From NCBI GenBank assembly GCA_903825575.1, contig CAIKAW010000031.1:131469-195468 (forward strand): a stretch of 64,000 nucleotides of DNA, in the 5' to 3' direction. Each line of letters opens with the position of its first letter. Position 1 is the first letter of the stretch. The DNA comes from an uncultured bacterium (GTDB lineage: Bacteria; Actinomycetota; Actinomycetes; S36-B12; CAIKAW01). The translations under genes were made by a program, and so were the position numbers. Under the pieces are notes generated by a model. That model searched no databases. It was not told the origin of the DNA and saw nothing but the letters and a program-made list of their open reading frames with translations. Shown here one piece after another: positions 10,441-58,136 of the stretch.

Positions 10441-10453
10441 GGATTGGGACCCA

Positions 10454-21850: not shown

Positions 21851-21877
21851 GTTATCAGCGGGTTTAGTCTACGCCCG

Positions 21878-27737: not shown

Positions 27738-27881
27738 CCCGCAAGCCTGCCCGCTTCCGACCTTTGCTGCAAGGACCGAGCAGCCCGGATAGAGGGGCCC
27801 TTTACCGCTCGCAGCCAGCCGACGCGCCGTAAACCTACGCCCCCGTAGGTTACGGATCCGTAGGTAGGGCACAATGGCCCT

Positions 27882-29645: not shown

Positions 29646-30797
29646 ATGCTCGTTTCTCTCGGTCGTTCCAGCGCAATTCGCGGCGTCGCGATAGCTGCGT
29701 CCTTGGCGGTACTCGGCGGGCTTGGTATCGCCCCCGCCGAAGCGCAGGCAAGCCTTACCAACGCAAATAGTGGTCGTCATGGACTTTTCGGTGCCCAAGA
29801 TCCCTCCTACGACGGAGTCTTCAGGCAGGGGTTGAGCATTCTTGGTTTACGGGCAAATCACATTCCTGTGCCCACGGCGGCTGTTAAGTGGCTACTTACG
29901 CAACAGTGTGCAGACGCGGGCTTTCAGGCCTTCCGTCCTTCCATATCAAGTGCCTGCCTCAAATCTGATCCGATCAACTACCGCGGCGAGGACACAAATT
30001 CAACGGCCCTAGCAGTTGCGGCGCTGTCCTACGTGTGGCAGGCAAGCACGACTTCACAGACCGATGCCAGACTTCTCGCGCGCAAGCGTGCGATTGCCTG
30101 GCTTGCGGCGCATCAAAACCCGGACGGCGGCTGGGCTTACTACCCGGGGGGAACTTCCGATGCCAATTCAACGGGTCTGGTCCTTGCCGGATTGTCGGCG
30201 GCGGGCGTCCCATCCGGAACCAGGCACCGACTGAATGGCTCGAACGCCCTGCACTTTCTCGCCTTCGCTCAGTTGCGGTGTTCGGCGACAAGCGCCACGC
30301 GAGGAGGCATTGATTGGCAAGCCGAACGCCCGCTAGTTGCTAATGGCTCGGCAACCGCCCAATCGCTTTGGGGTCTTGCAACCCAAGGGATCGTCGCGCC
30401 CAAAACGCTTGCGTCTGGCACCTGGTCAACAGCATGCGTTTCTGGGCACTGGGGGCCTGCGGTCGGTGTTGCGCAGGCGGCCGACAGTTTTCTAACTCGC
30501 ACAATTCTCGCGCACCACGGCTTCATTCCTTCACCATCCGCCGCGACCATCGACACCACGACCACCGCATTTGCGGTACTGGGACTCATTGCGATGGGTC
30601 ACAGTTCAAGTGCCGTAGTTCAGGCAGTGGCGGCACTAAAACGTGCGACGGCGAAGTTCGTTGTTGATCCGGCTCACCGTGGAGTACCCGGATCGCTGGC
30701 TGTGCTTCTTCTGGTCGCACACGCAAGTGGCTCTAATCCAAGCAGTTTCGGCGGAGTTAATCTGGGCAGCAGACTGCTGGCGACTCTCACACCGTGA
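29646..30797 (+). CDS. Secreted prenyltransferase/squalene-oxidase-repeat (alpha/alpha-toroid) protein
   Basis: Signal peptide 'MLVSLGRSSAIRGVAIAASLAVLGGLGIAPAEAQA'. Repeats such as 'HQNPDGGWAYYPGG' and 'DTNSTALAV/DANSTGLVL' are typical of terpenoid-cyclase-like toroid repeats. It sits directly behind the B12 riboswitch. Confidence 0.7.
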   Translation: MLVSLGRSSAIRGVAIAASLAVLGGLGIAPAEAQASLTNANSGRHGLFGAQDPSYDGVFRQGLSILGLRANHIPVPTAAVKWLLTQQCADAGFQAFRPSISSACLKSDPINYRGEDTNSTALAVAALSYVWQASTTSQTDARLLARKRAIAWLAAHQNPDGGWAYYPGGTSDANSTGLVLAGLSAAGVPSGTRHRLNGSNALHFLAFAQLRCSATSATRGGIDWQAERPLVANGSATAQSLWGLATQGIVAPKTLASGTWSTACVSGHWGPAVGVAQAADSFLTRTILAHHGFIPSPSAATIDTTTTAFAVLGLIAMGHSSSAVVQAVAALKRATAKFVVDPAHRGVPGSLAVLLLVAHASGSNPSSFGGVNLGSRLLATLTP

Positions 30798-37587: not shown

Positions 37588-38418
37588 TCAGCAACTGCGC
37601 CGCCACGCACCCAGTGATACCTGTTTTAGGATCGAAGCAAACCCCAAACTTCGAGCTGCCGGACAGAACTGCGTGAGTTTCAGGTTGTACTCGGCATTGA
37701 ATACCGGCTTTCTGGCGCGAATGAAGATCGAAAGCACGCCGCACTCGGCATACTCAAAACACTGCTCATTAACTGCGAAATCGAAACTGGGCTCTAGTGC
37801 GACCGCCTGGTCCAGATCGTTCTTCAAGCCGATAGCCAATCCACGCGCATGGGCCATTGCTGCCAACATGCGGTCGTACTTAAGCTGTTGCGCTGCAGTG
37901 AGCGGGAATCCGGTGCGACTCTGATAGCCATCGACGAGGTCCGCCTCCACGCCGTTGAATCCCTTGGCCTTGCATAGGTCCATCCGCTTACCCATGATTT
38001 GAGCCAATGTTGGCGTGGCCCGGATATCAAGCCAACGCTCCTGCGGCCACCCATCAACCGGCAAACCAATGATATTGCGCGGAAACGAGAAATAGTCCGG
38101 CCGGCCGGTTTCCAGCGAACCGGCACTGAAATAGCACACCACCTTGCGCCTAAGTGCGTGCAACCTAGCGACAGTTGCCTTCGAAGTTTCGAACAGGTCA
38201 ACGTCATACACCGAAGCACGGATTGTGGTGTCGATCGGGCCGTCCAACTGCCATTGCCAACTCACGCCGGGAAGGGGATGCCATCGCACGGGTGCAAGCA
38301 CAGGAGCCCCGGTGGCAGCGCCTACGCCAAGCATCATTGTCGACGCGACAATGATGACCGGGCCCAACCCCAAGGCACGCCTGAGGCTCGCCCCAACTGT
38401 GCGTCTGGACCCGGTCAC
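37588..38418 (-). CDS. Secreted endo-alpha-1,4-polygalactosaminidase-like hydrolase (GH114, Ega3-type)
   Basis: 'WQWQLDGPID', 'VVCYFSAGSLETGRPD', 'ERWLDIR', 'KGFNGVEADLVDGY' and 'GLAIGLKND' are GH114 hallmarks. I prefer the GTG at 38418 (RBS GGTGGA); the track start at 38502 overlaps the upstream gene by 70 nt. Confidence 0.8.
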   Translation of the reverse strand: MTGSRRTVGASLRRALGLGPVIIVASTMMLGVGAATGAPVLAPVRWHPLPGVSWQWQLDGPIDTTIRASVYDVDLFETSKATVARLHALRRKVVCYFSAGSLETGRPDYFSFPRNIIGLPVDGWPQERWLDIRATPTLAQIMGKRMDLCKAKGFNGVEADLVDGYQSRTGFPLTAAQQLKYDRMLAAMAHARGLAIGLKNDLDQAVALEPSFDFAVNEQCFEYAECGVLSIFIRARKPVFNAEYNLKLTQFCPAARSLGFASILKQVSLGAWRRSC

Positions 38419-38432
38419 CAAATATCCACCGG

Positions 38433-41400
38433 CTACTGCACCCGCAATTGCAGGTATTGATAGGCACTGCCTGCACTGTTCCTCGCTCTGATCGCAATCC
38501 ACCGAGACCCGGTGGTTGCGAACTTCCCAGTGATGGTCGCTGATCCGTTGCCATTATCGACAAAGGTTAGACCGCTGGGTAACGAAGAACCCAATGAAAG
38601 CGATGGAGTTGGAATTCCTACTGCCACGACGTTGACAGCAAACGGTTGTGCCACGGCGATAGTGACAGACGATGGACTCGTAAAGGTGGGTGCGATTCGG
38701 ATGTTGACGGTCAGACTCTGGGCCGCCGTGCCGTAGAGGTTTGTTGCCGTGAGGCTAACGACTAAGACACCAGCCGTACCAGCTGGCGGAGTTCCCGTCA
38801 GCAGTCCACGACCACTCCCACGATCGGTGAACGTCAACCAAGTTGGTAGTCCCCCGACTACTGCCAGAGCTGGACTTGGAATGCCGTTCGCTTGCACATA
38901 GAACGACCCTGATCTACCTGCCGTGAAGTTGGCCGTCGTCGAGCTGGTGAACACTGGGACACGTCCGAGTGCGATGGTCAGCGTCTGAGTTGCCGATCCA
39001 GCGATATTGCGTGCCGTGATGGTAACTCGATACGTGCTGTCGAAGGTACCTATTGGCGTACCCGAAATGAGCGCGGTTCCGTTGCCATTGTCGACGAACC
39101 GTAGCCCTCTGGGAAGGGTTCCAGCGATGGTCATTGCAGGTGCCGGATAGCCATTTGTCGTCACCGTGAAACTGCCAGCTGTCCCAAGCAGCAACCCCGC
39201 AATTGACGGACTCGTAATAGCCGGCGCCTCATCCACTGTGATCACATACGCACGGCTAATGGACGCCGGACCCGCTGTCGCCGTGACAGTAATCGGGTAT
39301 TGGCCGCCCGAACCTGACGTTGGAGTGCCGGAAAACGTGGCAGTTCCATTGCCGTTGTCGGTGAAGGCAATCCCCGCAGGCAAGGTCTGGCCTGTGATCT
39401 CGATAGTCGCAGCATTTGTAGCAGCGATAGACAAGGTGCCGGCAGTCCCTACAGTGAATGTTGCAGTAGTCGGGCCCGTGAATGCCAGTGCTGCCGGCGT
39501 GGTGATCACCGCACTACCAGCAAGCCACGTGGAGGTCTCGCCGCCGTAGTTCTCTCCAAAAACCAAACCGTTGACATTCGACCCGGCAGGAACGGTGATC
39601 GGTGCAGGCGTGGCAGTCGGATTCGTGATAGTTACCAGGCCGTCCTGTACATAGCCAGACACACTAGAACCGTTGGGCATCCCGACCGTGTTCCAATTTG
39701 CCTGGTTCTGCAGCATGGCAGCGCTTTGGGTAAGCGTCAGATTCACTACGGGCGTAGTTGGCGCAAAAGCTGACTTGTAGGTCTTGAGAATCGACGACAT
39801 TAACGTCAGACCGAGATAGTCCGGCGCGGTTAGGTTCGAAACGTGCGCATAGAACGGCCGCGGATCGTTGCTGAGAATAAAGTTCAGATCATTGGCCGTG
39901 TCGATAGGCACGATATAGCTGGCGAACCCAGTTGACTGATCCAGCGGGGTCGCAAGGCAGGTGGCCGTGGTCGGGTTCGCGGTGCAGTACCCGCTGCCAT
40001 TAGGTGCCGGCGAGTAGATCCAGTTGTATTCGCTTACCTCCTCGGCGGTTGTCGATACGTTGTAGTAGATAGCCATTGGATGGCGCGGCACGGTCAGTGC
40101 CGTGCCCACTTGGCGTTGAGCTGTGCCACGGGATGCGTCAGCCCCGATAACTGAGATGTTGTTCGCACCCAGGGCTGCAATGAAGTTCGGGTTGTCAACC
40201 GGCTGCTGTGGCAGCAGGAAGAGCCCTGAGTGCTCGCCCGACAGGTACTCGGCCTGATCGAACGGCAGACCGAGGGCCTGACCGGCGGATATGTTGTTGG
40301 TGATTTCGCTAGAGATCGCCGCCTGAGGAACCCAAACCGCATTACTGCCCGTGGGCGTGATCGGAAGGTTGTCGGTGGTTACGCAACTCCAAGGAATAAC
40401 AAGGAACGATTGCTGACAGCCTTGGAAGATGTGTTCGTAACCGTGGTTAAGCCATCGAAACGATTGGGCGTTCGCCTGGAAGGCGTTAGTGAGAGCATCG
40501 GTTCCGTTCCAAGGGTTGCCGCTGGCGTCGTACTGCGAGTAATACCCATTGAACGCGAGAGTCGGCGCGTACCCATTTGCCGCCTGCCAGGCCTGAAGAG
40601 CACTAACGTCGGTCGCTGACATCCGGATATCGGAGCCGGGGACCACAGAAGCCGGGCAGTCTTCCGTGGGCGTGCAGTGATTGACCGTGTCCCAACGAGC
40701 ATCGTATGCAAAGGCGTCATCGAACTGCTGGCTGTAGAAATTGCGGTTGTACCCGAAGTGGACACCGTGGGTGGCCCAGGAGATGATCCCGTGGGCCAAC
40801 AGGCGGAACTGATATTGCGAGTAGCTAAGTGCAACTGTGACTACCAACTGTTCTACCCCGGCATTGGCGTAGACGCCAACAATGCTGCCAACAGACGCTG
40901 TGGTTGGGATCGGCAATGTTACGAGCGGCGTGAATGACGCGCCGGCGGGCAATGCCGGCACGGTTGTGGCCGTAAGAGGCGTGGTTACATACCCGTACGA
41001 GCTAGACGTGAATGGCACTCCTCCGCTCAAATACCCCCAGCCCGAATTGGTGCCCGCGGGGGTCACCGTTGCGCTCATTCCATTAAGGTCACCGGCGTAA
41101 TAATCAAATCCACTGGTTTGGTAGAGACCGAGTCCTACCGTCGGACCAGCAAAGTCGTAGGCGTCGACTTGCCGGACGCTAAACGTCGACTCATACGATT
41201 GAAGGGCCGAGATCTCCGCAGCTGAAAGACCGGCGGGAGCGCTATTCGGCAAGATCACGGCCTGATAAAAGCCTTCGGTCCCGATCGAGAGGTACCCGGC
41301 ACCAATCGTCGCTCGAGTTGGGTCGTTCGTGTTCACGACAGTAAACGGCACTCCCTCGGTGGCCAGTTCCTGCTCAAGAGCGAACGTCGAAACGTCAGTC

Positions 41401-41594
41401 GCCGTGGCGGCCGTCGCACCCAGCGGATTGTCATCCACCACGAGCACGCGAAGGTCCAGGCGCACGCCGGCCGCCAACGCCGGATTGCCGTAGGCAACCA
41501 GACTCGCAACCAAGCCAAGTCCGGCCACACTAGCAATCGCGCGTGACCTGTTGATGGTGCCGATACCGGCCGATGCAATCCTTATCCGCTTCAC
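38433..41594 (-). CDS. Large secreted protein: candidate Agd3/CE4-like polysaccharide deacetylase domain plus four C-terminal Ig-like (He_PIG-type) repeats
   Basis: Signal peptide. A 'QQFDDAF' motif (residues 289-295) and 'NHGYEH' (HxxxH, residues 383-388, HGYEH core at 40431-40445) resemble deacetylase motifs 1 and 2. Residues about 700-1053 are four repeats of about 90 aa. Confidence 0.5.
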   Translation of the reverse strand: MKRIRIASAGIGTINRSRAIASVAGLGLVASLVAYGNPALAAGVRLDLRVLVVDDNPLGATAATATDVSTFALEQELATEGVPFTVVNTNDPTRATIGAGYLSIGTEGFYQAVILPNSAPAGLSAAEISALQSYESTFSVRQVDAYDFAGPTVGLGLYQTSGFDYYAGDLNGMSATVTPAGTNSGWGYLSGGVPFTSSSYGYVTTPLTATTVPALPAGASFTPLVTLPIPTTASVGSIVGVYANAGVEQLVVTVALSYSQYQFRLLAHGIISWATHGVHFGYNRNFYSQQFDDAFAYDARWDTVNHCTPTEDCPASVVPGSDIRMSATDVSALQAWQAANGYAPTLAFNGYYSQYDASGNPWNGTDALTNAFQANAQSFRWLNHGYEHIFQGCQQSFLVIPWSCVTTDNLPITPTGSNAVWVPQAAISSEITNNISAGQALGLPFDQAEYLSGEHSGLFLLPQQPVDNPNFIAALGANNISVIGADASRGTAQRQVGTALTVPRHPMAIYYNVSTTAEEVSEYNWIYSPAPNGSGYCTANPTTATCLATPLDQSTGFASYIVPIDTANDLNFILSNDPRPFYAHVSNLTAPDYLGLTLMSSILKTYKSAFAPTTPVVNLTLTQSAAMLQNQANWNTVGMPNGSSVSGYVQDGLVTITNPTATPAPITVPAGSNVNGLVFGENYGGETSTWLAGSAVITTPAALAFTGPTTATFTVGTAGTLSIAATNAATIEITGQTLPAGIAFTDNGNGTATFSGTPTSGSGGQYPITVTATAGPASISRAYVITVDEAPAITSPSIAGLLLGTAGSFTVTTNGYPAPAMTIAGTLPRGLRFVDNGNGTALISGTPIGTFDSTYRVTITARNIAGSATQTLTIALGRVPVFTSSTTANFTAGRSGSFYVQANGIPSPALAVVGGLPTWLTFTDRGSGRGLLTGTPPAGTAGVLVVSLTATNLYGTAAQSLTVNIRIAPTFTSPSSVTIAVAQPFAVNVVAVGIPTPSLSLGSSLPSGLTFVDNGNGSATITGKFATTGSRWIAIRARNSAGSAYQYLQLRVQ
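38436..39497 (-). repeat. Four tandem repeats of about 90 aa (about 270 bp), Ig-like, inside the CDS
   Basis: The pattern 'F(T/V)DNGNG(T/S)A.(I/F)(S/T)G(T/K)' recurs, flanked by 'AP.(I/F)TS' boundaries. Confidence 0.8.
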
Positions 41595-41676
41595 CGCGAT
41601 CTACCCCCACGAATCCGAACCGTCTCACCGATCGCAGGCGCGTCGATAAGTAGAGCAAACAGTTTGATGTAGCGCA

Positions 41677-42339
41677 TCAGGCACTGACCCGAAGTTGACT
41701 GGTGATCGCCGGCGAAAGGTGGTCCCAAGGGTTTGCGCCGTCGCCGTCGGTCGCATAGCAAGTGGCGCCATGAGCCTGCGCTCGCAGCCGAGTCAACTCC
41801 TGACGTTCCGGGGATACGCCGTACACCAAATGAAGGCGAGACACGCCTACCTGAGCTGGTGGAGCAGTGCTCAATTGCTGCCTCGAGTACACGTCGTCCG
41901 GACCCTCGAAAGTGACACACACATCCACGGCCAACAGCAGGTCAAGGTCAGGCTCAACGCCAGGATTCACCGCAATCGGAATCGCGGGTTCTTTGCGAAG
42001 TTGACGCAGCACCTCAGTGAATGACGCCGTCAATTCGGAGGGCGATTGATCGAAGAAGAATGCGTCAACTCCGTACCACGCACGCCAAGACTCGACATCG
42101 CCCAATATCTGTGAGGTGGCTCGAGTACCGTATGCCAGATCCACATAGCCATACACCGGCATTGCAGGGTGCAATTGTGCTGCTAGTCCGACGTACGCGT
42201 CATCAATCATTTGGCCAGGCCCGTCTGCCACATTAATGACAATCCCACCTACAAAAGATGCGGCCGCCTGCACCTTTGCCCACTCGGAGAGTGCTACCAC
42301 CGGATGAAAATAGGCAGGCACAATTGGCTGCATGGTCAT
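41677..42339 (-). CDS. Spherulation-specific family 4 protein (Sph3-like, GH135)
   Basis: 'VPAYFHP....W........VGGIVINVADGPG' is the typical spherulin-4/Sph3 N-terminus, in a (beta/alpha)8-like protein of 220 aa. An ATGA overlap with the upstream gene is present. Confidence 0.7.
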   Translation of the reverse strand: MTMQPIVPAYFHPVVALSEWAKVQAAASFVGGIVINVADGPGQMIDDAYVGLAAQLHPAMPVYGYVDLAYGTRATSQILGDVESWRAWYGVDAFFFDQSPSELTASFTEVLRQLRKEPAIPIAVNPGVEPDLDLLLAVDVCVTFEGPDDVYSRQQLSTAPPAQVGVSRLHLVYGVSPERQELTRLRAQAHGATCYATDGDGANPWDHLSPAITSQLRVSA

Positions 42340-44081
42340 GCCGTCACCCGCTGCGTAACCAGGTCAGCGACGGTGTCGCGCAAATCGAATACGGTATGCC
42401 ACCCGAGCACTTCGGATGCGCGCGCGACGTCGGCGCATTGCCATTCGACGCCCGCCGACCGCGGCGAAACCGAGGCGGTCTCTTCGATTGGACCTTGGTA
42501 GCCGACAATTGAAGCCATCTTTTGGACCAACTCACGCACCGCTACTGCCTCACCGCGGCCAATGTTGAATGTTCCTTTTAGATCACCTTGATGCAGCGCA
42601 GCCGCGGCAGCAGCCTTTGCCACATCGCGCACATCAACGAAGTCGCGAAACGCACCCAAAGGCCCTAGTCGCACGGGGCCACCCTCGGCGACTACACGCG
42701 CGAATTCGGCCTCGGCTCTGCCGAGCAGGCTTCCTGCGGGCGCCCCAGGACCAACTGCATTGAATACGCGGAGCACCACACCCGAGATCCGTCCGGTCGC
42801 GGCCGCGCGAAGAACCGCCTCGGTGCCTGCCAATTTCGTGAGCCCATAGACGCTTTCAGGACGCGGTATCGCGGATTCGCGAAGCGGTACCCCGGCGAGG
42901 CCGCCGCCGTATTCCGCCGCCGAGCCAATGTGCACCAACCTGATTGGTACCTCGGAGCTCGCGATGGCGTCAATGAGTCGGGCAGTAAATCCCACGTTTG
43001 CATCCGTCAAGGCTGCTAGGTCACCTGATGTGGCTCCGGCACAGTTGATTACGGCGGTCGGGCGAAACTCTTTTAGGTACTGGACCAAGCGCACTTGGCC
43101 TGCCTCGGAGTCAACGAACTCGACGATCGGGATTGCCGCCGGTACCGAACCCATCCTTGAGGAAGCGAAAGTGTGGCCTGCTCCCCGCGTTAGACAAGCA
43201 ACTTCGACAGCATCGAGTTGCGTTAGTTCCTGCACGACATGTCCCCCGATGAAACCCGTTCCGCCTACAACCAACACCCGAGGGTGGTCTGATCGGGCGG
43301 CTAGGTCGGCTTGGGTTATGGACACACGCAAATCGATCTCAGCGGTTGCAGTCCCCTCTTTCACGACGGTCTTTGTCGGTAGCAAGCTGCTCGACATGAG
43401 TTCAAAATCGGCATTGGCCCGGTCGTAATCCTCGGGCCGTCCGATATCTAGCCAGTACCCGTCGAAGAGATGAGCCCTCGGGTTATCTCCTCTAGCAATG
43501 AGATCTAGTACTAGTTCATCAAACCCGAATGGTTTGCCAGCTTCATATGGACGCAACGTCTCACGCGAAAGTCCGTAAACGCCCATGCTCACTCGGTAAG
43601 GCAGTTTCGGCTTTTCGCGGAAGGCTGTGATACGACCTTCACACTCTTCAAGAACGCCGAAGTCAACGTTTACGGATCGGTCAAACGTCGATACGGTCAA
43701 GGGTGCACCTGACGCCATGTGGCCCTGGAGGACACGGCCGAAGTCAAGGTCCGTCAGCACATCGCCATTCATCACCAGGAAGTCCTGCGGCAACCTATCC
43801 AAATGCGGCAGCAGCGGCCCGATTGTTCCGAGCGGGGTTCTCTCCTCTACGTACCTCACAGAGAGCCCCCAGCGAGATCCGTCACCTACGAAACTGCGAA
43901 TCAGATGTCCGAAATGGCCAATCGCAAGTGTGATGCTTGTGAACCCTTGACTAGCCAACTGCAGCATGACTATCTCGAGGATTGAGTACTCCTCGCCAAT
44001 CGGTACTAGCGGCTTTGGAATGGTGGTCGTGTAGGGGCGCAGCCTTACGCCTCGCCCCCCAGCAAGGATTACTGCATGCAT
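42336..44081 (-). CDS. Fusion protein: sugar-1-phosphate nucleotidyltransferase (N) + NAD-dependent epimerase/dehydratase (C)
   Basis: N-terminus 'AVILAGGRGVRLRPYTTTIPKPLVPI' (NTP_transferase). C-terminal half 'VLVVGGTGFIGGHVV' is an extended-SDR Rossmann with 'YGLTK'. Confidence 0.75.
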   Translation of the reverse strand: MHAVILAGGRGVRLRPYTTTIPKPLVPIGEEYSILEIVMLQLASQGFTSITLAIGHFGHLIRSFVGDGSRWGLSVRYVEERTPLGTIGPLLPHLDRLPQDFLVMNGDVLTDLDFGRVLQGHMASGAPLTVSTFDRSVNVDFGVLEECEGRITAFREKPKLPYRVSMGVYGLSRETLRPYEAGKPFGFDELVLDLIARGDNPRAHLFDGYWLDIGRPEDYDRANADFELMSSSLLPTKTVVKEGTATAEIDLRVSITQADLAARSDHPRVLVVGGTGFIGGHVVQELTQLDAVEVACLTRGAGHTFASSRMGSVPAAIPIVEFVDSEAGQVRLVQYLKEFRPTAVINCAGATSGDLAALTDANVGFTARLIDAIASSEVPIRLVHIGSAAEYGGGLAGVPLRESAIPRPESVYGLTKLAGTEAVLRAAATGRISGVVLRVFNAVGPGAPAGSLLGRAEAEFARVVAEGGPVRLGPLGAFRDFVDVRDVAKAAAAAALHQGDLKGTFNIGRGEAVAVRELVQKMASIVGYQGPIEETASVSPRSAGVEWQCADVARASEVLGWHTVFDLRDTVADLVTQRVTA

Positions 44082-44091
44082 TCCAACCCCC

Positions 44092-45087
44092 CTAGATCGT
44101 GTATGAATCGGGTCGATAGCGGGCTAGGTTCACCGGGTCGCAGAACCAGTCAGCTGTTGCCTTTAGTCCGGTCCGCAGATCGTGCAGCGGTTCCCACCCG
44201 GTGACGCGCTGAAGTTTCCGGCTGTCGCACACCAGACGCTGCACCTCTGACGCGGACGGTCGCAGCCGCGCAGGATCCTGCTTGATTTCCGCCTGCACTC
44301 CCATCACGTCTGCAATCGTCATCGCAAGATCCCCAATGCTGATCTCATAGCCGGTACCCGCGTTGAACACCTCGCCGATAACAGCATCTGGGGGGGCTGT
44401 TCCAACTGCGATGAATGCCGCGACCGTGTCCGCCACAAACGTGAGATCGCGGGTGGGATCAAGTGCCCCAAGTTCGATCACGCGGCGACCGCTGGCCAGC
44501 GCGCTCACTACCGTGGGGATAACTGCGCGAGCCGATTGCCGCGGTCCAAAGGTGTTAAACGGTCGTAGAGTGACTACTGGACTTTCAAAACTCAAGTAGT
44601 AGCTCTCAACGAGTTTGTCCGCAGCAACCTTCGTTGCCGCGTAAGGCGACTGTGCTTGGCTTGGGTGATCCTCGCTAATCGGCACGGTGCGAGCTGTCCC
44701 ATAGGTCTCACTTGTCGACGTTTGAACAATTCGAGGCGTACCTAAATCACGAGCCGCTTCCAGCAGATTAAGCGTGCCGGTGATGTTGGTATCGACGTAT
44801 GACTGCGGCGCGACATACGAGTACGGGATGGCGATCAAGGCTGCTAGATGGTAGGCAACTTCGGCCCCGTCGAGCACAGTTCGCACGCTACGCGGGTCTC
44901 GAACATCCCCGAGGATTGGTTCAACGCTGGAAAGGACATCAGGGGAAAGCGAATCAAGCCACCCGTAGGAACCGAACGAGTTGTACTGGACCATCGCCTT
45001 AACGCGGCATCCGCGCTGGACCAACGCCTCAACCAGGTGCGAGCCAATGAAGCCTTCTGCCCCGGTAACGGCAACCGTGTTTGACAC
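44092..45087 (-). CDS. NAD-dependent epimerase/dehydratase (extended SDR; nucleotide-sugar epimerase or 4,6-dehydratase)
   Basis: 'VAVTGAEGFIGSHLVE', 'TSTSETYG' and 'SPYAATKVAADKL' (YxxxK). Confidence 0.85.
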   Translation of the reverse strand: MSNTVAVTGAEGFIGSHLVEALVQRGCRVKAMVQYNSFGSYGWLDSLSPDVLSSVEPILGDVRDPRSVRTVLDGAEVAYHLAALIAIPYSYVAPQSYVDTNITGTLNLLEAARDLGTPRIVQTSTSETYGTARTVPISEDHPSQAQSPYAATKVAADKLVESYYLSFESPVVTLRPFNTFGPRQSARAVIPTVVSALASGRRVIELGALDPTRDLTFVADTVAAFIAVGTAPPDAVIGEVFNAGTGYEISIGDLAMTIADVMGVQAEIKQDPARLRPSASEVQRLVCDSRKLQRVTGWEPLHDLRTGLKATADWFCDPVNLARYRPDSYTI

Positions 45088-45099
45088 TTCGACTCCCGG

Positions 45100-46605
45100 C
45101 TAGATGTGGACGAGTGGACTGCGGAGGCGGGTCAAAGCGAACCCACATAAGACGGCTAGACAAACCAGAAGCGACACCAAGTAGTTCCTTGCCACTGACG
45201 CCGAATCCAGCGCCGTCCAGCCGAGGTAGATCGATAAACCGACAGCTAGGCATGCCACGGGGAATAGAACTTCCCCTACCGACAGCAGCACCAAACAGAC
45301 AAAGAAGCAAAGAGCCAGAACTCCGTAGCCGCTCACCACGGTTACAGTTCTGCCGCCCGAAGCCGGAGAAGTCAGCCCTGATATCACCGCCACAAGCAGG
45401 AGAACCATTCCTGCGTAGCTCATCAACGCGGTAAACATCGCCCGCCGAACGCGCCGTGCGAACTCATCAGCTTGAGTCTCGGTGCGCAACAACAGATCGG
45501 TTTCCTTTCTCAGCCGCTGCAGTTGCCATTCCGCCGCGCCCATGCTCATGACCAAAGGCAAGGCCAAGTACCACGCGGAAGACAGCCGCTGCCCGAGCAC
45601 CGCGGTCCAGGTCAACGGGGCCACTCCGACCGCCGCGGCACAAGCAATCCCATAGGCGAAGTGCGGGGCGCCGGCTCGAACGTCTTCGGCCCGAAGCCAA
45701 TTACCACGCGCCCTCTTCCTTGGTGAAGCCAGGCCTGGCTTCCGGCCCACTACTGCGTGTCGGGCGGTCTCACGGCGGCCCGTCGCGCGCACTGCCAACA
45801 CCAGCACAACCAAAACCGTCAATGCCGTGACGAACGACGCCGTCGCTGTGCCGTACGGCGCAAGGTCCAGAGCAAGTAGCACCACCGCAAGGCCCGCTGG
45901 GAGCAGTACCGCAAGTAGGACAATGTCGTCACCGAGGACCAACAATGCGCCGGCCGCCAATTGGTAAATGCCTACACCCGCACCGACTACGGCCGTCTCG
46001 CCGCTGATGCCGGTCGATAGTGTGATCCAAATAATTAGCGTCCCAAGCACCGCTAAACCGACTAGCAGCCAGGAGCGCAACACGGCGTTGGCTGCCGACG
46101 GACCAAACCAACCTAAATTCCGATGTCCTAGGAATGACATTGCCTGACTCCAGCCCCATCCAAATCCGAGGCAAACCAAGATCACCCAGACCGAATCAGC
46201 GCCAACCGTTCGTAGCGCAGTGATCCCGGCAAGCCCCGGCAACGCGTAGATGACCCCGCGGCGCACACTGCGGGCCGTCGTATCGAAAGATCGCTGAGAT
46301 TTGCTGGGTACAGACGCACCCCGGCGAGGCACTCGCATGAAGAGGGCTTCGGCCAAAGAGAAGACGTCCGCATAGCCGTATTGGTGGCAAGTTCGATCGT
46401 TCATCCCCTCAGCCTCTAGACCAGCAGCTATCTGCCAGGGATCAACAGCGGTAACGCAAAGGTCATTGTGGGCACGCGCAAGCCCAGCCAAAGGTGTAGA
46501 ACCCCGGCGATCATCAGACCGATGCGCTCTAACCTGCGCCCGATGAACAACTGCCGGAGCAGACTTGCGGACGGTTGTTGCCCGGCGATTCATTGCGATA
46601 TTCAT
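45100..46605 (-). CDS. Polytopic membrane protein of unknown function in the PelG position (candidate polysaccharide exporter/polymerase)
   Basis: A roughly 110-aa soluble N-terminus is followed by at least 10 hydrophobic segments, with a charged loop 'EWQLQRLRKETDLLLRTETQADEFARRVRR'. It has a 4-nt overlap with the pelF-like gene. I could not establish homology by eye. Confidence 0.45.
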   Translation of the reverse strand: MNIAMNRRATTVRKSAPAVVHRAQVRAHRSDDRRGSTPLAGLARAHNDLCVTAVDPWQIAAGLEAEGMNDRTCHQYGYADVFSLAEALFMRVPRRGASVPSKSQRSFDTTARSVRRGVIYALPGLAGITALRTVGADSVWVILVCLGFGWGWSQAMSFLGHRNLGWFGPSAANAVLRSWLLVGLAVLGTLIIWITLSTGISGETAVVGAGVGIYQLAAGALLVLGDDIVLLAVLLPAGLAVVLLALDLAPYGTATASFVTALTVLVVLVLAVRATGRRETARHAVVGRKPGLASPRKRARGNWLRAEDVRAGAPHFAYGIACAAAVGVAPLTWTAVLGQRLSSAWYLALPLVMSMGAAEWQLQRLRKETDLLLRTETQADEFARRVRRAMFTALMSYAGMVLLLVAVISGLTSPASGGRTVTVVSGYGVLALCFFVCLVLLSVGEVLFPVACLAVGLSIYLGWTALDSASVARNYLVSLLVCLAVLCGFALTRLRSPLVHI

Positions 46606-48170
46606 GCGGGTCGCACCAACCTTGGAAGTGCAATGGGGTCGGCCGTTTCGGATTCTAGGACGGACTTGTAAACGGCCTCCAACGACCGGATCGAATGTGC
46701 AAGTGTGAATCGGTCAAGCACACGACTCCTCGCTGCCGCGCCTAACCGGTGCCGTTCTTTTGCGTCACGTAGCAGCGAGATACAGGCAGCGGCCAGGGCT
46801 TCGGCATTTCGCGCAGGGACCACAATCCCCGCATCCCCAACTGCTTCGGCCACCCCGCCGACATCCGTGCTGACTGTGGCCCGTCCGCTACACATGGCTT
46901 CGATAACCGTGTAAGGGAAGCCTTCACTGATGCTGCTAAGTACCACCACTTGCCCAGCGGCGTACGCTTCATGAGCGGACTCAGACCGCCCTTCAAAGCT
47001 AATTCGCTTGTCTAGCTTCAGCTCGCCGATCAGCGCAATGCAACGCTCCAAGTAGTCCTCGCGTCGAGGTGGCGCAGTACCGAATATTCGTAAGCGGGAA
47101 CCTGGTACTTGGGCAACCACGAGAGCGAAGCTCCGGATTAGGCCCTCGATGTCTTTGAGCGGGTCAATCCGGCCCATGTAGACCAAAGTGGGTTCAGCTG
47201 GTTCGACATCGCAAACCGGGAACTGCTCAGGATCGACACCGTTATACACCGTGACGATTGCCTCCGGGTCGGCCCCGCCGTTGAGTTCCCAGCGCCGGTT
47301 GTACATGTTGCCCGGAGCAATGAGTGCGGCTTCGGCGTACACAAGTACGGTCAGCGCCCTAGTGAATCGGAGCAGGGCCGACTTCACAGCCCAGCTGTAT
47401 GTCGTCTCGCGGTGCGCTAGATATCGCTCGCGCAAGTAGACCCCGTGCTCACTCACCACAAACGGTGTGCCGTAGGTCCATTTGGCACCCAGCGCCACCA
47501 AGCCTGCTAACCCATTTGAAGCGCAATGAACTAGATCGACCGTAGGTGCTTGCAGACTCAGCGGACGCAACATGTGCTCCAGCCAGATGGCCACAATCAC
47601 CGCGTCACCAACGGGGGGAATCCAACGATTCAATGACCCCGGATCCTCGCTCGATGGGGGCCAGACCCGCCAACTCTCGGAGATGATCCGCACCGCCTGC
47701 TCTGATCGCATCGCCGCCCGAAGCTCTTCGGTCTGCGCATACTCATAGAGCCCGCGTAGCGCTGAGGCAAAGTCCCCCGGAGCAGGCCCCGGGCCGAATG
47801 CCGCTCCAATCAGCCTTGAGAAGACTTCTACAAACCTGGCCAGCGCCCGGCCCCGTGGGGCTCGACCCGCTGATTCTTGGGACCAGAGAGCAACGGATGT
47901 CAGGCGCTGAACATTGCCGGGCAGTTCGAAGGCTGGAGGTTGCCCTTGGGCGCCAACCAATGACACAACCTCGAATAACCGCTGAGGCATGCCACTGATT
48001 ACTTGATCACACCAGACACTGACTCCGCCTGCCGAATACGGGTAGCCCCCTTCTGTGACTAGGGCTACTTGCTGTGCGGGGCTAGGAAGAACAAACACGG
48101 CATGCCAGCTCAGGATGGCTGGGTCTGACAAACGCTCGGAATTCCACGGCGAACTCTTCCCCCCGAACAA
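46602..48170 (-). CDS. pelF: PelF-like GT4 glycosyltransferase with DUF3492 N-terminal domain
   Basis: 'VALVTEGGYPYSAGGVSVWCDQVISGMP' closely parallels the PelF N-terminus ('LLLEGTWPYVRGGVSSWVNQLI'). A C-terminal GT4 'EGFPYTVIEAM' motif is present. Confidence 0.8.
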   Translation of the reverse strand: MFGGKSSPWNSERLSDPAILSWHAVFVLPSPAQQVALVTEGGYPYSAGGVSVWCDQVISGMPQRLFEVVSLVGAQGQPPAFELPGNVQRLTSVALWSQESAGRAPRGRALARFVEVFSRLIGAAFGPGPAPGDFASALRGLYEYAQTEELRAAMRSEQAVRIISESWRVWPPSSEDPGSLNRWIPPVGDAVIVAIWLEHMLRPLSLQAPTVDLVHCASNGLAGLVALGAKWTYGTPFVVSEHGVYLRERYLAHRETTYSWAVKSALLRFTRALTVLVYAEAALIAPGNMYNRRWELNGGADPEAIVTVYNGVDPEQFPVCDVEPAEPTLVYMGRIDPLKDIEGLIRSFALVVAQVPGSRLRIFGTAPPRREDYLERCIALIGELKLDKRISFEGRSESAHEAYAAGQVVVLSSISEGFPYTVIEAMCSGRATVSTDVGGVAEAVGDAGIVVPARNAEALAAACISLLRDAKERHRLGAAARSRVLDRFTLAHSIRSLEAVYKSVLESETADPIALPRLVRPA

Positions 48171-48350
48171 CCGCCAAGCCCCCCGGCTGTGACAGCGAAA
48201 ACATATGCGATTTTGGATTCGGTTGGGAGATCTTTAGGAAAACTGATCTTCAAACATTCCCCGAAAGGGTGAATCTTTTGGGTCCCTATTACTTCACGTG
48301 TTATCGCTTGCGCGGAGCGTTACGTCAGCGACGCATTCATTTGCGAGGTA

Positions 48351-49700
48351 CTAGGAGCAAGCCTGCCTCGGAGCATCGAGGGCGAGATTCTTCTTCATAC
48401 TTGAGAAGCCCAACGCGATCATCGTGGGACAGAAACTTGCGGTCGTCCCTTGATACTCCACTTCTAGGACTGCCTTCCCGGCAGCTACGAACGGCGAGTA
48501 CGAACTGCATTCGCCATATTGGTAGCACTCCTCAACAATGGCGAAGTCAAATTTCGGCGCCAACGCCGCAGCTTGCTCTGGATCGTTCTTGAGGGCAACA
48601 CCTAGTCCGTACTTGTGGGCCAAGTCGGCTAGGGCCGAGTTGTACGCTATCTGGTTGGCCGCTGTGAGCGGGAACCCCGTGTTGTTGGTATACCCGTCCA
48701 CCACATCTGCCTCTAGGGCATCGAACCCTTTCGCCTTGCAGTCAGCAATCCGCTTCTCCATGATCGGCAGGAGGATGGTAAGCGCCCTGATATCGAGCCA
48801 GCGCTCGTCCGGCCAACCGTTCATCGTGTTACCGAGCACCACTGCCGGGAAACTTGCAGCGTCTGGTCGGTAGTTCTCCCAACCGCCCGCGTCGATGTAG
48901 CAGATCACATGAGCACCCTTGGAGTGCAGTCCGGCGACGGTCGCTGCCGAGTTGTCCTGCCCGTCGATGTCGAAGACCGGCACCGCTACCGAGGCGTCAA
49001 TCGTCCCAGCTAGCTGCCACTGCCAGGTGGTGCCAAGCGTTGGGCGCCACCAGCCACTTGCCGGCGGTGCGCCCGTGTAGGTCACTGTCGGTGTCGCAGT
49101 AGGCGTCACCGTGGCCAGCGGGGTGAGCGTCGGCGTCGGCGAAAAGGTGGCAGCGGGAGGCGAGCTCGCACTCAAGCTAAGCGTTGGCGAGCCGCTTGCA
49201 ACTGGCGCGGAACTCCCCGGCACAGACCCACTTGGTGACCCCGAGGGGCTTGGAGGAATCGTGGCGACAGGTACTGGAAGACCGGCCAGCGGCACCGCTA
49301 CGTTCGACGGGCTAGACCAAGAGCCGCTGGTCGAACTGTTCTCGGCTCGGACCCGGAAGACGTAGTTGCGCCCATTAGTCAAGCCGGTATAGAGAATGGT
49401 CGTCACACGTGTGCCGGTGTACTTCCCGTGTCCCCAAGTGGTTCCGCCATCGGCCGAGTACGTGAGGTAGTACTCGCCTATAACGAACCCAGGTGAAGCC
49501 GGTGCCAACCAACTCACGCGGACTTGCCCACTTCCGGCTACGGCGGTGACTGAGGTTGGCGATGCTGCCGTCAACTTCGCCGGAGTAGACGCGGCTGTCG
49601 AACTAGCAGCAACAAGTATCGGAGCGATCACAACCGCTAGGGTTGCTGCTCCCGCAATCCACTTTCCCCTATGACTCGACCCAACCCCGTTGATCCCCAT
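48351..49700 (-). CDS. Secreted FN3 - Pro/Ser/Thr linker - GH114 (Ega3-type) hydrolase
   Basis: The ATG at 49700 gives a signal/TM segment 'WIAGAATLAVVIAPILVAASS'. An FN3 module follows ('VRVSWLAP....Y.LTYS.DGGTTW...Y.FRVRAEN'), then a PST-rich linker. The GH114 core reads 'WQWQLAGTID', 'VICYIDAGGWENYRPD', 'ERWLDIR', 'KGFDALEADVVDGY'. Confidence 0.75.
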   Translation of the reverse strand: MGINGVGSSHRGKWIAGAATLAVVIAPILVAASSTAASTPAKLTAASPTSVTAVAGSGQVRVSWLAPASPGFVIGEYYLTYSADGGTTWGHGKYTGTRVTTILYTGLTNGRNYVFRVRAENSSTSGSWSSPSNVAVPLAGLPVPVATIPPSPSGSPSGSVPGSSAPVASGSPTLSLSASSPPAATFSPTPTLTPLATVTPTATPTVTYTGAPPASGWWRPTLGTTWQWQLAGTIDASVAVPVFDIDGQDNSAATVAGLHSKGAHVICYIDAGGWENYRPDAASFPAVVLGNTMNGWPDERWLDIRALTILLPIMEKRIADCKAKGFDALEADVVDGYTNNTGFPLTAANQIAYNSALADLAHKYGLGVALKNDPEQAAALAPKFDFAIVEECYQYGECSSYSPFVAAGKAVLEVEYQGTTASFCPTMIALGFSSMKKNLALDAPRQACS

Positions 49701-49872
49701 AGGCAGTGCATCGGCATTCTGATCCGCCTGCTCGATAGCAAACCGGATGCAATTTGGCGAGAAGTCGATCAATCTACGAGGGATTTTGTCTTTTCGTGCC
49801 CTAAGTCCCGATGGACTTGGGGTAGCCTCCAGAAACGCGCGGGGGGGCCGCGCCGCAACGGTGGGGGTACTC

Positions 49873-50286
49873 GTGGCGACCAAGCAGGGGGCAGGGACTG
49901 CCCAGAACCCGTGGGAGCTAATGACTCCACCGGGCAAGGCAGGATTTCAGATGTGGCGTGACCCATCGGCCGATCCGCCTGCCCTTATTTGCCAGGTAGG
50001 CACCACGCAGTTGCGTTACCACCTGCGCGCAATCGACGACTTGCACGCGATGTTGGTCCAGCATGGCGATTGGCTGCCCCTTGGCGGCGCAGATGAGCAG
50101 AAACCGGCACCGGAAGGCACCGTCGAAGCTTGGGGCCGGTCACCGGAAAATCCCGTCGGTGGCTGGTACGGGCTGAAGAAAGGGCTTCGCGGTCGGTTCG
50201 GGGTTTACCTCCCACCGCTGCTTGAGGCGCTCGGGCTCGCCGAACTAACTCATGATGCAAAGAACAATCGAATGCGGGCGCTGTAG
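49873..50286 (+). CDS. Conserved hypothetical protein (small, soluble)
   Basis: Coding-like composition. 'NPWELMTPPG...ALICQVG...LRYHLRAIDDLHAMLVQHGDWLPLGGADEQKPAPEGTVEAWGRS..NPVGGWYGLKKG.RGRFG.YLPPLLEALGLAE' looks like a conserved family I cannot name. The start is uncertain: GTG at 49873 or ATG at 49921. Confidence 0.5.
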   Translation: MATKQGAGTAQNPWELMTPPGKAGFQMWRDPSADPPALICQVGTTQLRYHLRAIDDLHAMLVQHGDWLPLGGADEQKPAPEGTVEAWGRSPENPVGGWYGLKKGLRGRFGVYLPPLLEALGLAELTHDAKNNRMRAL

Positions 50287-53724: not shown

Positions 53725-56700
53725 TTAGAGGGTTTGGGTGAATGTTTTGGATGCGTCGATTCCGGCGCCGGAGGTGTTGATGGCTCGAACTTGGATTTCG
53801 TAGGCGTGGGCCTTGGCGAGGGCGGTGTGCGTTGTGCTTAGCACCAGTTTGGTTGAGACCCAAGCAGACCAAGTGACACCACCGTTGCTGGACCAACGCA
53901 CCTGATAGGCGCTGACTGCTGAGCTACCAAGTGTTGACGGTGCCACCCAGGTCACTTTGGCGGTGCCGGCGGCCGGGAATGTGACAGCCAGCGTTCTGGG
54001 GGCGCTGGGGGTGCCAACAATGATCGAAGCTGACGCCGCTGACGCTATGCCGGTGCCAACAATATTGGTGGCTCTCACCGCGAAGATGTAGGCAACACCG
54101 TTGGTTAGCCCGGTAACGGTGCAAGTCAGGGCACTGGTGGTGCAAGTGTGCCCACCTGGGGTAGCTGTCACCGTGTACCCGGTGATTGTGCTGCCACCGG
54201 TTGTGGCAGGTGCTGCCCACGACACTACGGCCGAGAGACTACGAGAGCTGGCAATCACCGAACGCGGCGCTGAAGGCACGTCAATCACCAGCGTGGTGGC
54301 GTTACTTGTGGCTGACGCCGAACCAGTTCCGTTACGAACACTGATGATTACCTTCAAGTAGTGTCCGGCATCTGTTGCTGTCTGGACGTAGGTGGCTTTT
54401 GTCGCATACGCGACTGGAGCCCAAACGATTCCGTTAACCGAAGATTCCCACAGGTAAGAAACGGTAGGACGACCCGATAGACCGCTTGCCGTGGCAGTCA
54501 GCGTTGAACCTACTTTGGCCGAGCCGGTGATCGTTGCAGTCGTGATCGTCGCAGCAGCAGCCGCAGAATCCCCAGAGATCACCCAAGTGTTCGGTGCGTC
54601 AGTAAGGACCGTCCTGTCAGCAGTCCCCGTGGTGCTGTAAGCCAATCCAAGCGCACCTAACGTCACATTCGGTGTGAGCCACTGGGCAGCCCATCCATTC
54701 AGCGTTGAATCGTAATTATCGGCTGACAAACCAGAGTTATCCAACATGGTGGTCATGTCCGTTACCCGGCCAACCGACCAAGACCCCAAATCCTGATTAA
54801 ATGCCGCAGCCCCAGCAAACATGCCAGTCATCAGATTCGTACTGATCGTATTCCAACCCGAAAGCGGCTGATTGAAAGCGGTAGCGCCCGAAAACATGTG
54901 AGACATATCCGTCACATGTCGAGTAGTCCAAGAACCAATCGGCTGATTGAACGCCGAGGCAGCAGAAAACATCCCAGCCATATCATCCACTTTTGCCGTA
55001 TTCCACGACCCGATCAGTTGGTTGAAAGGCAGGTCGAGGTTGAACATATGGGACATATCTGTCACATTGCTCGTATTCCATGACCCGATCGGCTGATTGA
55101 ACGCCGATGCTCTGGCGAACATGGATCCCGTATTCGTGACCCTGCCGGTGTCCCACGATCCGACCGGCTGATTGAACACCGAAGCATCGGCGAACATGGC
55201 CCCCATGTCGGTGACATGGCTGGTATTCCAGGCCGCAAGCGCCTGGTTGAACGCAGTGGCTCCTTGGAACATGCCTGACATGGAGGCGACGTTGCTGGTG
55301 TTCCACAACCCGATCGGCTGATTGAAAGTCGAAGCACCCTGGAACATGCATGACATGTCAGCGACGTTGCTGGTATTCCACGATCCAATAGGCCTGTTGA
55401 ATACTGCGGCATCGCCGAACAGACTGCCCATGCCGGTGACGTTGGCAGTATTCCAAGAGCCCACCGGCTGATTGAATGCTGCGGCGCCTTGGAACATGAA
55501 GCCCAGATCGGTCACCTTGCTGATGTTCCATAAACCTACTGGTTGATTGAAGACATTCGTCCAGGCGAACATGCCGTTCATGCTCGTTACGCTGCTGGTG
55601 TCCCAGGCGCCGATGGGCTGATTGAAGTTAGTCGCCCCCCAAAACATGCTCGTCATATTGCTGACGTTTCCGGTCTTCCATGCACCAATTGGGTGGTTGA
55701 ACACGTCTTCTCCGGCGAACATGCCTGACATGTCCGTGACGTTGCTGGTATTCCATGATCCAATCGCTTGATCGAAAGGACGATCGGACCAGAACATGTC
55801 GCCCATCGTCGTAACGCTGCTGGTATCCCAACTGGATATGTCTTGATTGAACATCGAAGCCCTGAACATGCCGGACATGTTGATCACCTTGCTGGTATTC
55901 CATTTAGATATGTCCTGATTGAACGCCTGCTCATCTGCAAACATCAAGGACATATCAGTAACACTCGTGGTGTTCCAGTTGGAGATGTCCTGGTTGAACA
56001 CGGAAGCGCCATAGAACATGTAGCCCATGTTGCTGACGTTGCTCGTATCCCATGTCCCGATCGGCTGATTGAACATCGTGTCGTTGCCAAACATTAAGCT
56101 CATATTGGTCACGTTGGTGGTGATCCACGAGTTGATTGGATGATTGAACGTCCCCGCGTTATCACTTGCGAACATGGCCCCCATGTCAGTGACGTTGCTG
56201 GTGCTCCAGGCCGCAATTGGCTGGTCGAATAGATCGGCGTTGTAGAACATGGAGTTCATGTTGGTCACGTTCGACGTGTCCCAACCAGAGATGTCCTGAT
56301 TGAACACTGCAGCCCCGGAAAACATGCTGCCCATGTCTGAGACGCTGGCTGTACTCCACAACTCAATTGGCTGATTAAATGCGACAGCCCCGGTGAACAT
56401 CCCGTTCATGCTGTTGACGTGGCTCGTGTCCCATGTGCCAATCGGCTGATCAAAGATCGGGTCATAGGCGAACATGTTGCCCATGTCGGTGACGAGGCCC
56501 GTGTTCCAGCTCGTAATGTCCTGATTGAATGCCGCGGCACCCTGGAACATACCGTTCATCGTGGTCACTGCGCTTGTGTTCCAGACCCCAATAGGCTGAT
56601 CGAAGATTGGGTCATTGGTGAACATGTTGCTCATGTCGGTGACGAGGCCAGTGTTCCAACTTGTGATGTCCTGATTGAACACTGCAGCCCCTGAGAACAT

Positions 56701-58080: not shown

Positions 58081-58136
58081 CAAATACTCCAGAACTTGAA
58101 GGACCATCAGGAGACGAACCGTGCAGAACCTGCGTG

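Follow-up and report, generated by a model that had tools for sequence, protein, structure and literature searches.

A stretch of 64,000 nucleotides (nt) on contig CAIKAW010000031.1 of an uncultured actinomycete, referred to here as the window, contains between positions 37588 and 49700 eight open reading frames (ORFs), all on the minus strand, that together resemble a locus for exopolysaccharide synthesis. They encode two glycoside hydrolases of family GH114 (GH114a and GH114b), a PelF-like glycosyltransferase (GT), a polytopic membrane protein, an extended short-chain dehydrogenase/reductase (SDR1), a fusion of a nucleotidyltransferase (NT) domain with a second enzyme of the SDR type (NT-SDR2), a Spherulin4/GH135-like protein and an Agd3-like deacetylase. 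We propose, with a probability of roughly 60%, that the locus is an operon of the synthase type whose product is a hexosamine polymer with alpha linkages, secreted and in part de-N-acetylated (cationic), of the kind represented by bacterial Pel and fungal galactosaminogalactan (GAG). This interpretation is supported by the family and structure assignments, by the tight operon spacing, by synteny and plasmid copies, by conserved catalytic residues in the Agd3-like and GH135-like proteins, and by acidic motifs of GH114b that are identical to those of Ega3. The same interpretation has been put forward for bacterial Agd3 operons by Bamford et al. (2020, Nat Commun; PMC7229062), and the locus is a member of this already predicted class rather than a new kind. 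Profile searches and structure predictions placed all products except the membrane protein, and the PelF, GH114 and Agd3 assignments made beforehand by a sequence-only reading of this DNA hold, as does that of GH135 at the level of the Spherulin4 family.

The putative polymerising enzyme is the PelF-like protein (46602-48170; the first possible start is a TTG at 48170). It matched Pfam DUF3492 (E 8.5e-47) and Glycos_transf_1 (E 2.9e-29), and the NCBIfam PelF equivalog model covered it at full length (positions 2-485 of 489) with 165.4 bits against a cutoff of 100, in agreement with the earlier call of a PelF-like DUF3492-GT4 protein. It aligned end to end with the annotated PelF of Burkholderia thailandensis (29% identity, E 2e-37) and carries the E-x7-E motif EGFPYTVIE. 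The protein is thus predicted to be a cytoplasmic GT4 enzyme with an N-terminal DUF3492 domain. GT4 enzymes are retaining glycosyltransferases.

The 1053-aa product of the gene at 38433-41594, in which deacetylase-like motifs had been noticed earlier, proved to be an Agd3 homologue. A phmmer search against the Protein Data Bank (PDB) returned the immunoglobulin (Ig)-like repeats only, and a Pfam search of the N-terminal 700 aa at E ≤ 10 returned nothing, the models Agd3_CE and CBM87_Agd3 included; NCBIfam gave no match in this part either. Since direct searches found only the Ig repeats, the assignment required a family profile and a predicted structure. With the first 700 residues 476 relatives were found, a few of which carry Pfam CBM87_Agd3 or Agd3_CE. 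A profile of 34 family sequences matched Agd3 (6NWZ) with E 6.3e-10 in an alignment spanning the CBM87 domain and the DD motif (CM1), and the HxxxH and PRxP..YYN motifs were colinear with those of Agd3. The AF2 model (mean pLDDT 90.7) retrieved 6nwz_A as the top Foldseek match over the whole chain (E 2.4e-29, TM 0.67/0.70), followed by the deacetylase NDST1; the identity in the structural alignment to Agd3 was 15%, which marks the relationship as remote. Residues D292-D293, H384, H388, R504 and H584 are invariant in the 34 homologues. Following a signal peptide, aa ~40-700 comprise CBM87-like, CE18-like and beta-rich domains, and the C-terminal part (aa ~700-1053) consists of Ig-like He_PIG repeats (Pfam E 1.7e-13), a tail that is lineage-specific. 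On the level of profiles and predicted structure we therefore accept the protein as a predicted secreted Agd3-type (CE18-like) polysaccharide de-N-acetylase, a type different from the PelA (CE21) and PelADA (CE26) deacetylases described in PMC13254593.

The two flanking hydrolases were both placed in GH114, as the sequence-only reading had assumed, and share 50% identity. GH114b (maximal ORF 37588-38502; 276 aa as called in the public assembly from a start at 38418) matched the Pfam family with E 2e-79 and the sequence of the Ega3 crystal structure 6oj1 with E 1.3e-50 over 233 residues. In this alignment GH114b and Ega3 agree in the acidic residues of EADLVDGY and VNEQC, an identity by alignment and not by numbering against the catalytic Asp-189 and Glu-247. 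GH114b is thus predicted to be a small secreted Ega3-type endo-alpha-1,4-polygalactosaminidase. Read by eye, its predicted leader, beginning VTGSRRTVGASLRRALGLGPVIIVAS, has two Arg-Arg pairs in front of the hydrophobic segment, and the enzyme may be exported in folded form by the Tat route. GH114a (maximal ORF 48351-49937, extendable to TTG at 49937; likely ATG start at 49700) combines an N-terminal hydrophobic anchor or signal, an FN3 domain (fn3 E 1.6e-10), a Pro/Ser/Thr-rich linker and a GH114 domain of the endo-alpha-1,4-polygalactosaminidase type (E 5.3e-81). In L001, the closest relative of the locus, no counterpart of GH114a was found 5′ of PelF, and its tie to the operon is therefore weaker. 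The substrates of GH114 and GH135 enzymes are established as alpha-1,4-linked galactosamine (GalN) and N-acetylgalactosamine (GalNAc) (PMC10485009, PMC12054363), and bacterial GH114 enzymes are largely uncharacterised and hard to obtain (PMC12054363).

The protein regarded earlier as Sph3-like (41677-42339, 220 aa) belongs to the Spherulin4 family (Pfam E 2.6e-24; 86.5 bits versus a cutoff of 30.2) and matched the Sph3 structure 5c5g weakly (E 5e-5). Among 63 cluster-associated Spherulin4 sequences (62 relatives and the window protein), at least 90% have retained the Asp of FFD and the Glu of TFEG; the equivalent of Glu-167 (Sph3 numbering from PMC10485009) is Gln in the window protein and variable among the 63. 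With MTMQPIVPAYFHP as its first residues, the maximal ORF overlaps the stop of the gene upstream; as it begins at the first barrel strand, a signal peptide is impossible. Neither signal peptide nor membrane anchor was found in the window protein, in the copies of loci L024, L027, L034 and L049 or, by RefSeq annotation, in the plasmid copies. Fungal Sph3, in contrast, was reported in 2015 to be membrane-anchored. The leaderless GH135-like enzyme is predicted to be cytoplasmic.

The spacing of the genes is that of an operon. PelF-like and membrane protein genes overlap by 4 nt at stop and start, the gaps from membrane protein gene to SDR1 and from SDR1 to NT-SDR2 are 12 and 10 nt, NT-SDR2 and the Spherulin4 gene again overlap by 4 nt, and gaps of 82 nt and (with the public start at 38418) 14 nt precede the Agd3-like gene and GH114b, respectively. 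These values match the earlier statement that seven of eight same-strand genes are tightly packed. GH114a is parted from the PelF-like ORF by an AT-richer spacer of ~180 nt (48171-48350, minus strand, measured to TTG 48170), which probably carries the promoter for the seven genes of the operon. Neither a consensus sigma-70 site nor an Rfam element was detected in this spacer, and an Rfam scan of the cluster at gathering thresholds gave no regulatory RNA, for example no riboswitch for cyclic di-GMP (c-di-GMP). Scans for promoters and for terminators both returned fewer sites than shuffled controls.

The cluster is more than a chance arrangement, as its genes recur in synteny in most of 80 related loci. 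In a scan of one genome per species, at least 593 stretches encoding Agd3-like relatives were obtained, of which the best 80 loci were kept; with the gene set recurring in most of these, the architecture is not unique. The 80 loci derive mostly from Streptomyces, Kitasatospora and Streptacidiphilus, together with Kutzneria, Actinomadura, Planosporangium, Ilumatobacteraceae and other Acidimicrobiia, and a metagenome-assembled genome (MAG) of the Nanopelagicales, the last being the closest among the matches listed (58%). Gene presence was counted from a tblastn table and a phmmer matrix on ORFs for 78 loci, some of which are clipped by contig ends. PelF was present in 72/78, the membrane protein in 67/78, SDR1 and Spherulin4 in 60/78 each, NT and SDR2 in 58/78 each and GH114 in 52/78; all eight functions occurred together in 39/78. 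A separate count of architectures by ORF overlap was unreliable due to long shadow ORFs in high-GC DNA and was not used. The usual order in Streptomyces is Agd3 - PelF - membrane protein - SDR1 - NT - SDR2 - Spherulin4 - GH114, from which the window and L001 differ by having Agd3 after Spherulin4. The module is also found on plasmids of Streptomyces californicus, Deinococcus, Kocuria and Thermus.

Several of these loci show additional features. The Kocuria rosea plasmid NZ_CP126484.1 (L084) carries at 5541-14609 a minimal five-gene form consisting of an Agd3-like gene, pelF and the genes for the membrane protein, Spherulin-4 and GH114; it is flanked by two inverted copies of one transposase (WP_284563886.1) on a mobilizable plasmid and looks like the cargo of a composite transposon. 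In three Ilumatobacteraceae MAGs (L002, L003 and L004, ~10000-15000) the Agd3-like gene is present as a tandem duplicate divergent from the PelF operon, together with one or two GH114 genes. A complete cluster was further detected on a 1.7-Mb contig labelled Candidatus Aminicenantes (L005); this label lies outside Actinomycetota and Deinococcota and therefore points to horizontal transfer or to a binning or labelling issue.

The sequence-only reading had proposed that the locus merges Pel and GAG components. The gene content indeed joins a PelF-type GT4 with homologues of fungal Agd3, Ega3/GH114 and Sph3/GH135, yet operons of the same content have already been described. According to Bamford et al. 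(2020; PMC7229062), Agd3 homologues with conserved catalytic motifs were found in 45 bacterial species, Actinobacteria and Deinococcus-Thermus included, in operons that always contain a cytoplasmic GT as well as an alpha-helical membrane protein with multiple spans, in most cases GH114 (at times in several copies) and, in Actinobacteria, Spherulin-4 genes, and a Pel/GAG-like polymer was suggested. Every component listed there was found in the window in syntenic arrangement. Neither PelF nor PelG is mentioned in that paper, and the GT of the operons is not named as PelF-type; nor do its passages on the operons discuss the nucleotide-sugar trio, the leaderless Spherulin-4 or a fold of the multidrug/oligosaccharidyl-lipid/polysaccharide (MOP) superfamily. 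The copy in the window has lineage-specific features, namely the position of Agd3 after Spherulin4, the NT-SDR2 fusion, the Ig-repeat and FN3 extensions and the second GH114. Added here are the structural confirmation of Agd3, the negative PelG test and the MOP fold, the dehydratase-type precursor route, the leaderless GH135, and the breadth and mobility of the module. The earlier description as an uncharacterised machine stands insofar as literature searches covering Streptomyces, Deinococcus and other actinobacteria turned up no experimental study of such a cluster.

With the Pel systems of Pseudomonas aeruginosa (pelABCDEFG) and Bacillus cereus (pelDEADAFG) the cluster shares a PelF-type DUF3492-GT4 gene followed directly by that of a 12-TM (transmembrane) protein, as well as, by prediction, extracellular deacetylation and hydrolysis of the alpha-1,4-galactosaminidase type; a GH114 gene also adjoins pelG in a Burkholderia pel locus. 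The cluster departs from them as follows. Identity of the PelF-like protein to a proteobacterial PelF amounts to only 29%, no PelG homology of the membrane protein was detected, the deacetylase is of the Agd3/CE18 type instead of PelA with GH166 and CE21 domains or Gram-positive PelADA with CE26 (PMC13254593), and dedicated NT and dehydratase genes replace a simple epimerase of the GalE/PelX type. In line with the sequence-only reading, scans of the cluster, its flanks and the larger of the other window ORFs detected no domain of PelA, PelD or PelE, and no Gtb3-type synthase domain either. The characterised Gram-positive Pel locus of B. cereus does possess PelD, PelE and PelADA, and the bona fide pel loci fetched for comparison carry PelD. 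GGDEF, GAF and TPR proteins were likewise absent from the cluster, the flanks and the other window ORFs scanned, and the reference loci checked showed no conserved neighbour of these families. Since the PelD/PelE module is missing, control would not proceed via the known c-di-GMP receptor. Gram-positive loci in which only pelF and pelG were detected have been described by Bundalovic-Torma et al. (2020).

The fungal GAG cluster of Aspergillus fumigatus (uge3-sph3-ega3-agd3-gtb3) resembles the window in its Agd3 (three-domain fold), Ega3 (E 1e-50) and Sph3 homologues and in their clustering with a synthase and nucleotide-sugar enzymes. It differs in its synthase, which in the window would be PelF with a MOP-fold protein, none of the eight products being Gtb3-like; in Sph3, which is leaderless in the window; and in the epimerase, as SDR1 is dehydratase-type and Uge3 a UDP-Glc/GlcNAc 4-epimerase. 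The similarity to Agd3 is remote, as mentioned above. The parallel to Uge3 drawn earlier is weak: the active site of SDR1 reads T-S-E, as in dehydratases, and the trio of NT, SDR1 and SDR2 is missing from several otherwise complete loci.

Combining these assignments by homology, the operon might work as follows. In the cytoplasm, the NT domain, the dehydratase-type SDR1 and the epimerase/reductase-type SDR2 would provide a dedicated nucleoside diphosphate (NDP)-sugar, which the soluble, retaining PelF-like GT4 would join into a chain at the membrane. Its translationally coupled 12-TM MOP-fold partner would transfer the polymer, as such or lipid-linked, to the outside, where the Agd3-like CE18/CBM87 enzyme, possibly tethered by its Ig-like repeats, would strip some of the N-acetyl groups, and the two Ega3-like GH114 enzymes would trim or release deacetylated stretches, while the leaderless GH135-like protein would act on the cytoplasmic side. 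GalNAc/GalN is the putative composition of the polymer.

The chemistry of the monomer is where a different interpretation has to be considered most seriously. SDR1 (44092-45087) and NT-SDR2 (42336-44081; NT at aa 1-~250, SDR2 at aa ~265-581) were confirmed as the extended SDR and the nucleotidyltransferase-epimerase fusion called before, the latter by Pfam NTP_transferase (E 1.1e-34) and Epimerase (E 9e-39). SDR1 reached 458.3 bits with the NCBIfam model LegB (TIGR04180, GDP-GlcNAc 4,6-dehydratase), just below the cutoff of 475, and only 144.5 bits with dTDP-glucose 4,6-dehydratase and 126.7 bits with GalE. Its STSETYG segment aligns with TDE of dTDP-glucose 4,6-dehydratases and with TCE of 3vps, which we take to be the dehydratase TunA of the tunicamycin pathway; the epimerase 6dnt has SSA at this site. 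SDR1 is therefore predicted to be a LegB-like, dehydratase-type extended SDR. The best PDB matches of the NT domain were mannose-1-phosphate guanylyltransferases, and those of SDR2 were MoeE5, GalE and GDP-6-deoxy-mannose reductase; the SDR2 segment GSAAEYG lacks the dehydratase Glu and resembles epimerases and 4-ketoreductases. The simplest chemistry would accordingly lead from an NDP-hexose(amine) via a 4-keto-6-deoxy intermediate to a reduced 6-deoxy sugar. NT and SDR2 were found on a single ORF in only 1/58 related loci by an ORF-based count, and the plasmid copies of S. californicus and Deinococcus encode them separately.

The same machinery might serve a different product: NT, SDR1 as 4,6-dehydratase and SDR2 as 4-ketoreductase would make an NDP-6-deoxy sugar, for example GDP- or UDP-linked N-acetylquinovosamine (QuiNAc) or N-acetylfucosamine (FucNAc), or a 6-deoxyhexose, and the polymer would be either a homopolymer of a 6-deoxy-hexosamine or a heteropolymer, and not a Pel-type GalNAc/GalN chain. 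Besides the properties of the three enzymes, this is favoured by the presence of the trio in ~58/78 loci, by SDR1 being the best-conserved gene of the cluster (61-77% identity across syntenic loci) and by the name GDP-mannose 4,6-dehydratase given by PGAP to the Deinococcus orthologue. It is opposed by the GH114 enzymes, which are very close to the GalN-specific Ega3, by the score of SDR1 just under the LegB cutoff and by its PDB relatives, which are a mixture of epimerases and dehydratases. In addition, the trio is missing from otherwise complete clusters on the Kocuria plasmid and in L017, L021, L029, L053, L079 and L080; it thus represents an accessory supply line outside the minimal machine, and the backbone can presumably be built from housekeeping precursors. 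On balance we consider a 6-deoxy polymer possible, though clearly the less probable product.

A second alternative arises from the membrane protein (45100-46605, 501 aa). The earlier assignment of a polytopic protein to the PelG position was correct with regard to position, and 12 TM helices are predicted, but no relationship to PelG was detectable. The protein and 28 homologues matched no Pfam or NCBIfam family (E ≤ 0.01), and no PelG match appeared in Pfam even at E ≤ 1. Comparison of the family by hhalign with one PelG and with a profile of four annotated PelG sequences gave a probability of 0.1, a PelG profile of this shallowness being one that very remote homology could escape. PGAP labels the Streptomyces orthologue as hypothetical protein, and true PelG is named in proteobacterial pel loci. 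On the basis of the Pfam search of 29 family members and of hhalign, membership in the PelG family was rejected. The AF2 model (mean pLDDT 84.9) shows the 12 TM helices and a conserved, cytoplasmic helical N-terminal domain of ~100 aa, and Foldseek retrieved MATE, WzxE and MurJ with probability 1.0 and TM 0.45-0.54. The predicted fold is thus that of the MOP superfamily (12-14 TM helices in two bundles, as in MATE, Wzx and MurJ), with no family match at the sequence level, and the protein probably does a PelG-like or Wzx-like job as the putative exporter partner of the GT. Within the N-terminal domain, residues ~38-95 contain the invariant positions L42, V54, L63, E64, G67, Y76, G77 and F82 and match no family; in a system devoid of PelD/PelE, the role of this domain may be one of docking or regulation.

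With the flippases WzxE (lipid III) and MurJ (lipid II) among its best structural matches and no PelG homology by sequence or profile, the membrane protein could belong to a Wzx-type lipid-carrier pathway, flipping undecaprenyl-linked units made by the GT4 enzyme, with the secreted enzymes remodelling a wall-attached glycan and not a free exopolysaccharide. However, PelG itself is regarded as a MOP-type protein, and for this reason the fold does not discriminate between the PelG and the Wzx type. Domains of initiating phosphoglycosyltransferases, Wzy polymerases or chain-length regulators are absent from all eight products, the GT is of the PelF type over its full length and scores above the equivalog cutoff, and in the reference loci checked no conserved regulator or other recurring family was found beside the cluster, save one unassigned ORF 5′ in ~26 loci. 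We therefore regard a lipid-carrier pathway as unlikely.

Some observations nevertheless weigh against a Pel/GAG-like synthase operon as preferred here. No polymer has been demonstrated for any bacterial copy of the cluster. The Agd3 models of Pfam stayed below threshold on the 1053-aa protein, the exporter cannot be detected as a PelG homologue (hhalign, see above) and its fold fits a Wzx-type flippase equally well. Moreover, the lack of an export signal makes the GH135-like protein a poor fit with extracellular trimming, and with SDR1 being dehydratase-like the monomer may be a sugar other than GalNAc. A degradative or competitive locus, whose secreted GH114 enzymes and deacetylase would attack fungal GAG or the bacterial Pel of neighbours, is very improbable: three secreted enzymes are homologous to GAG-active enzymes, and an endo-galactosaminidase is reported to be secreted by Streptomyces griseus (PMC7229062), but the conserved core always has the GT and the membrane exporter and usually the nucleotide-sugar genes, and no sugar uptake or catabolic genes are linked. 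A catabolic function was rejected for the same reason, as synthase, exporter and precursor genes form the conserved core.

The surroundings of the cluster are unrelated to it. On the 3′ side lie convergent inositol-catabolism genes and transaldolase genes, and on the 5′ side a DUF6855 gene in divergent orientation, genes for a hydrolase and an ABC ATPase, and those of two giant DUF285 proteins. The latter (53725-60095, minus strand; 1460 and 652 aa) look secreted and contain DUF285 repeats, 12 in the larger one, and fn3 domains; the GC content of this DNA is 0.53-0.545 compared to ~0.59, and they may therefore be acquired surface proteins. Among the inositol-catabolism genes converging on the cluster (KduI/IolB, a thiamine diphosphate (TPP) enzyme, transaldolase-like), a PfkB sugar kinase is fused to a Cgl0159-like domain (31662-33557, plus strand). 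Elsewhere in the window, tandem glycine riboswitch aptamers (21668-21854, minus strand; 66 and 38 bits) lie 5′ of the glycine dehydrogenase gene gcvP (18675-21605), and an adenosylcobalamin (AdoCbl) riboswitch (29406-29550, plus strand; 52.7 bits versus a cutoff of 50) overlaps the start of the ORF at 29472-30797, whose product shows alpha-alpha toroid repeats like those of prenyltransferases and squalene-hopene cyclases, an unusual gene 3′ of a B12 riboswitch. A YjjI-like glycyl radical enzyme (25472-28046, minus strand; E 1.5e-193) has a small adjoining ORF that could encode its activase.

Taken furthest, the data would describe a third, mechanistically distinct branch of Pel/GAG-type systems, widespread in Terrabacteria, that combines a PelF-type GT with an unrelated MOP-fold exporter bearing its own cytoplasmic regulatory domain, operates with no c-di-GMP receptor, contains a cytoplasmic GH135-like enzyme, makes a 6-deoxy amino sugar polymer via a GDP- or UDP-HexNAc (N-acetylhexosamine) dehydratase route and represents the bacterial source of the fungal Agd3/Ega3/Sph3 module. 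As a joint claim this is speculative, and we doubt that all of its parts hold together. If the Pel/GAG-like interpretation is true, a large share of actinobacteria, including many Streptomyces, as well as some Deinococcus and Thermus strains, would make an unstudied cationic adhesive polysaccharide. A polymer akin to Pel and to fungal GAG would be relevant to the aggregation of hyphae, to soil adhesion and to the biology of biofilms. Compared with both model systems, the cluster differs in specific points open to testing, namely its dehydratase-type precursor genes, its non-PelG exporter and its leaderless GH135. It further provides bacterial forms of Agd3, Ega3 and Sph3 that are tractable, and with it the origin in bacteria that has been proposed for the fungal GAG genes could be tested concretely.

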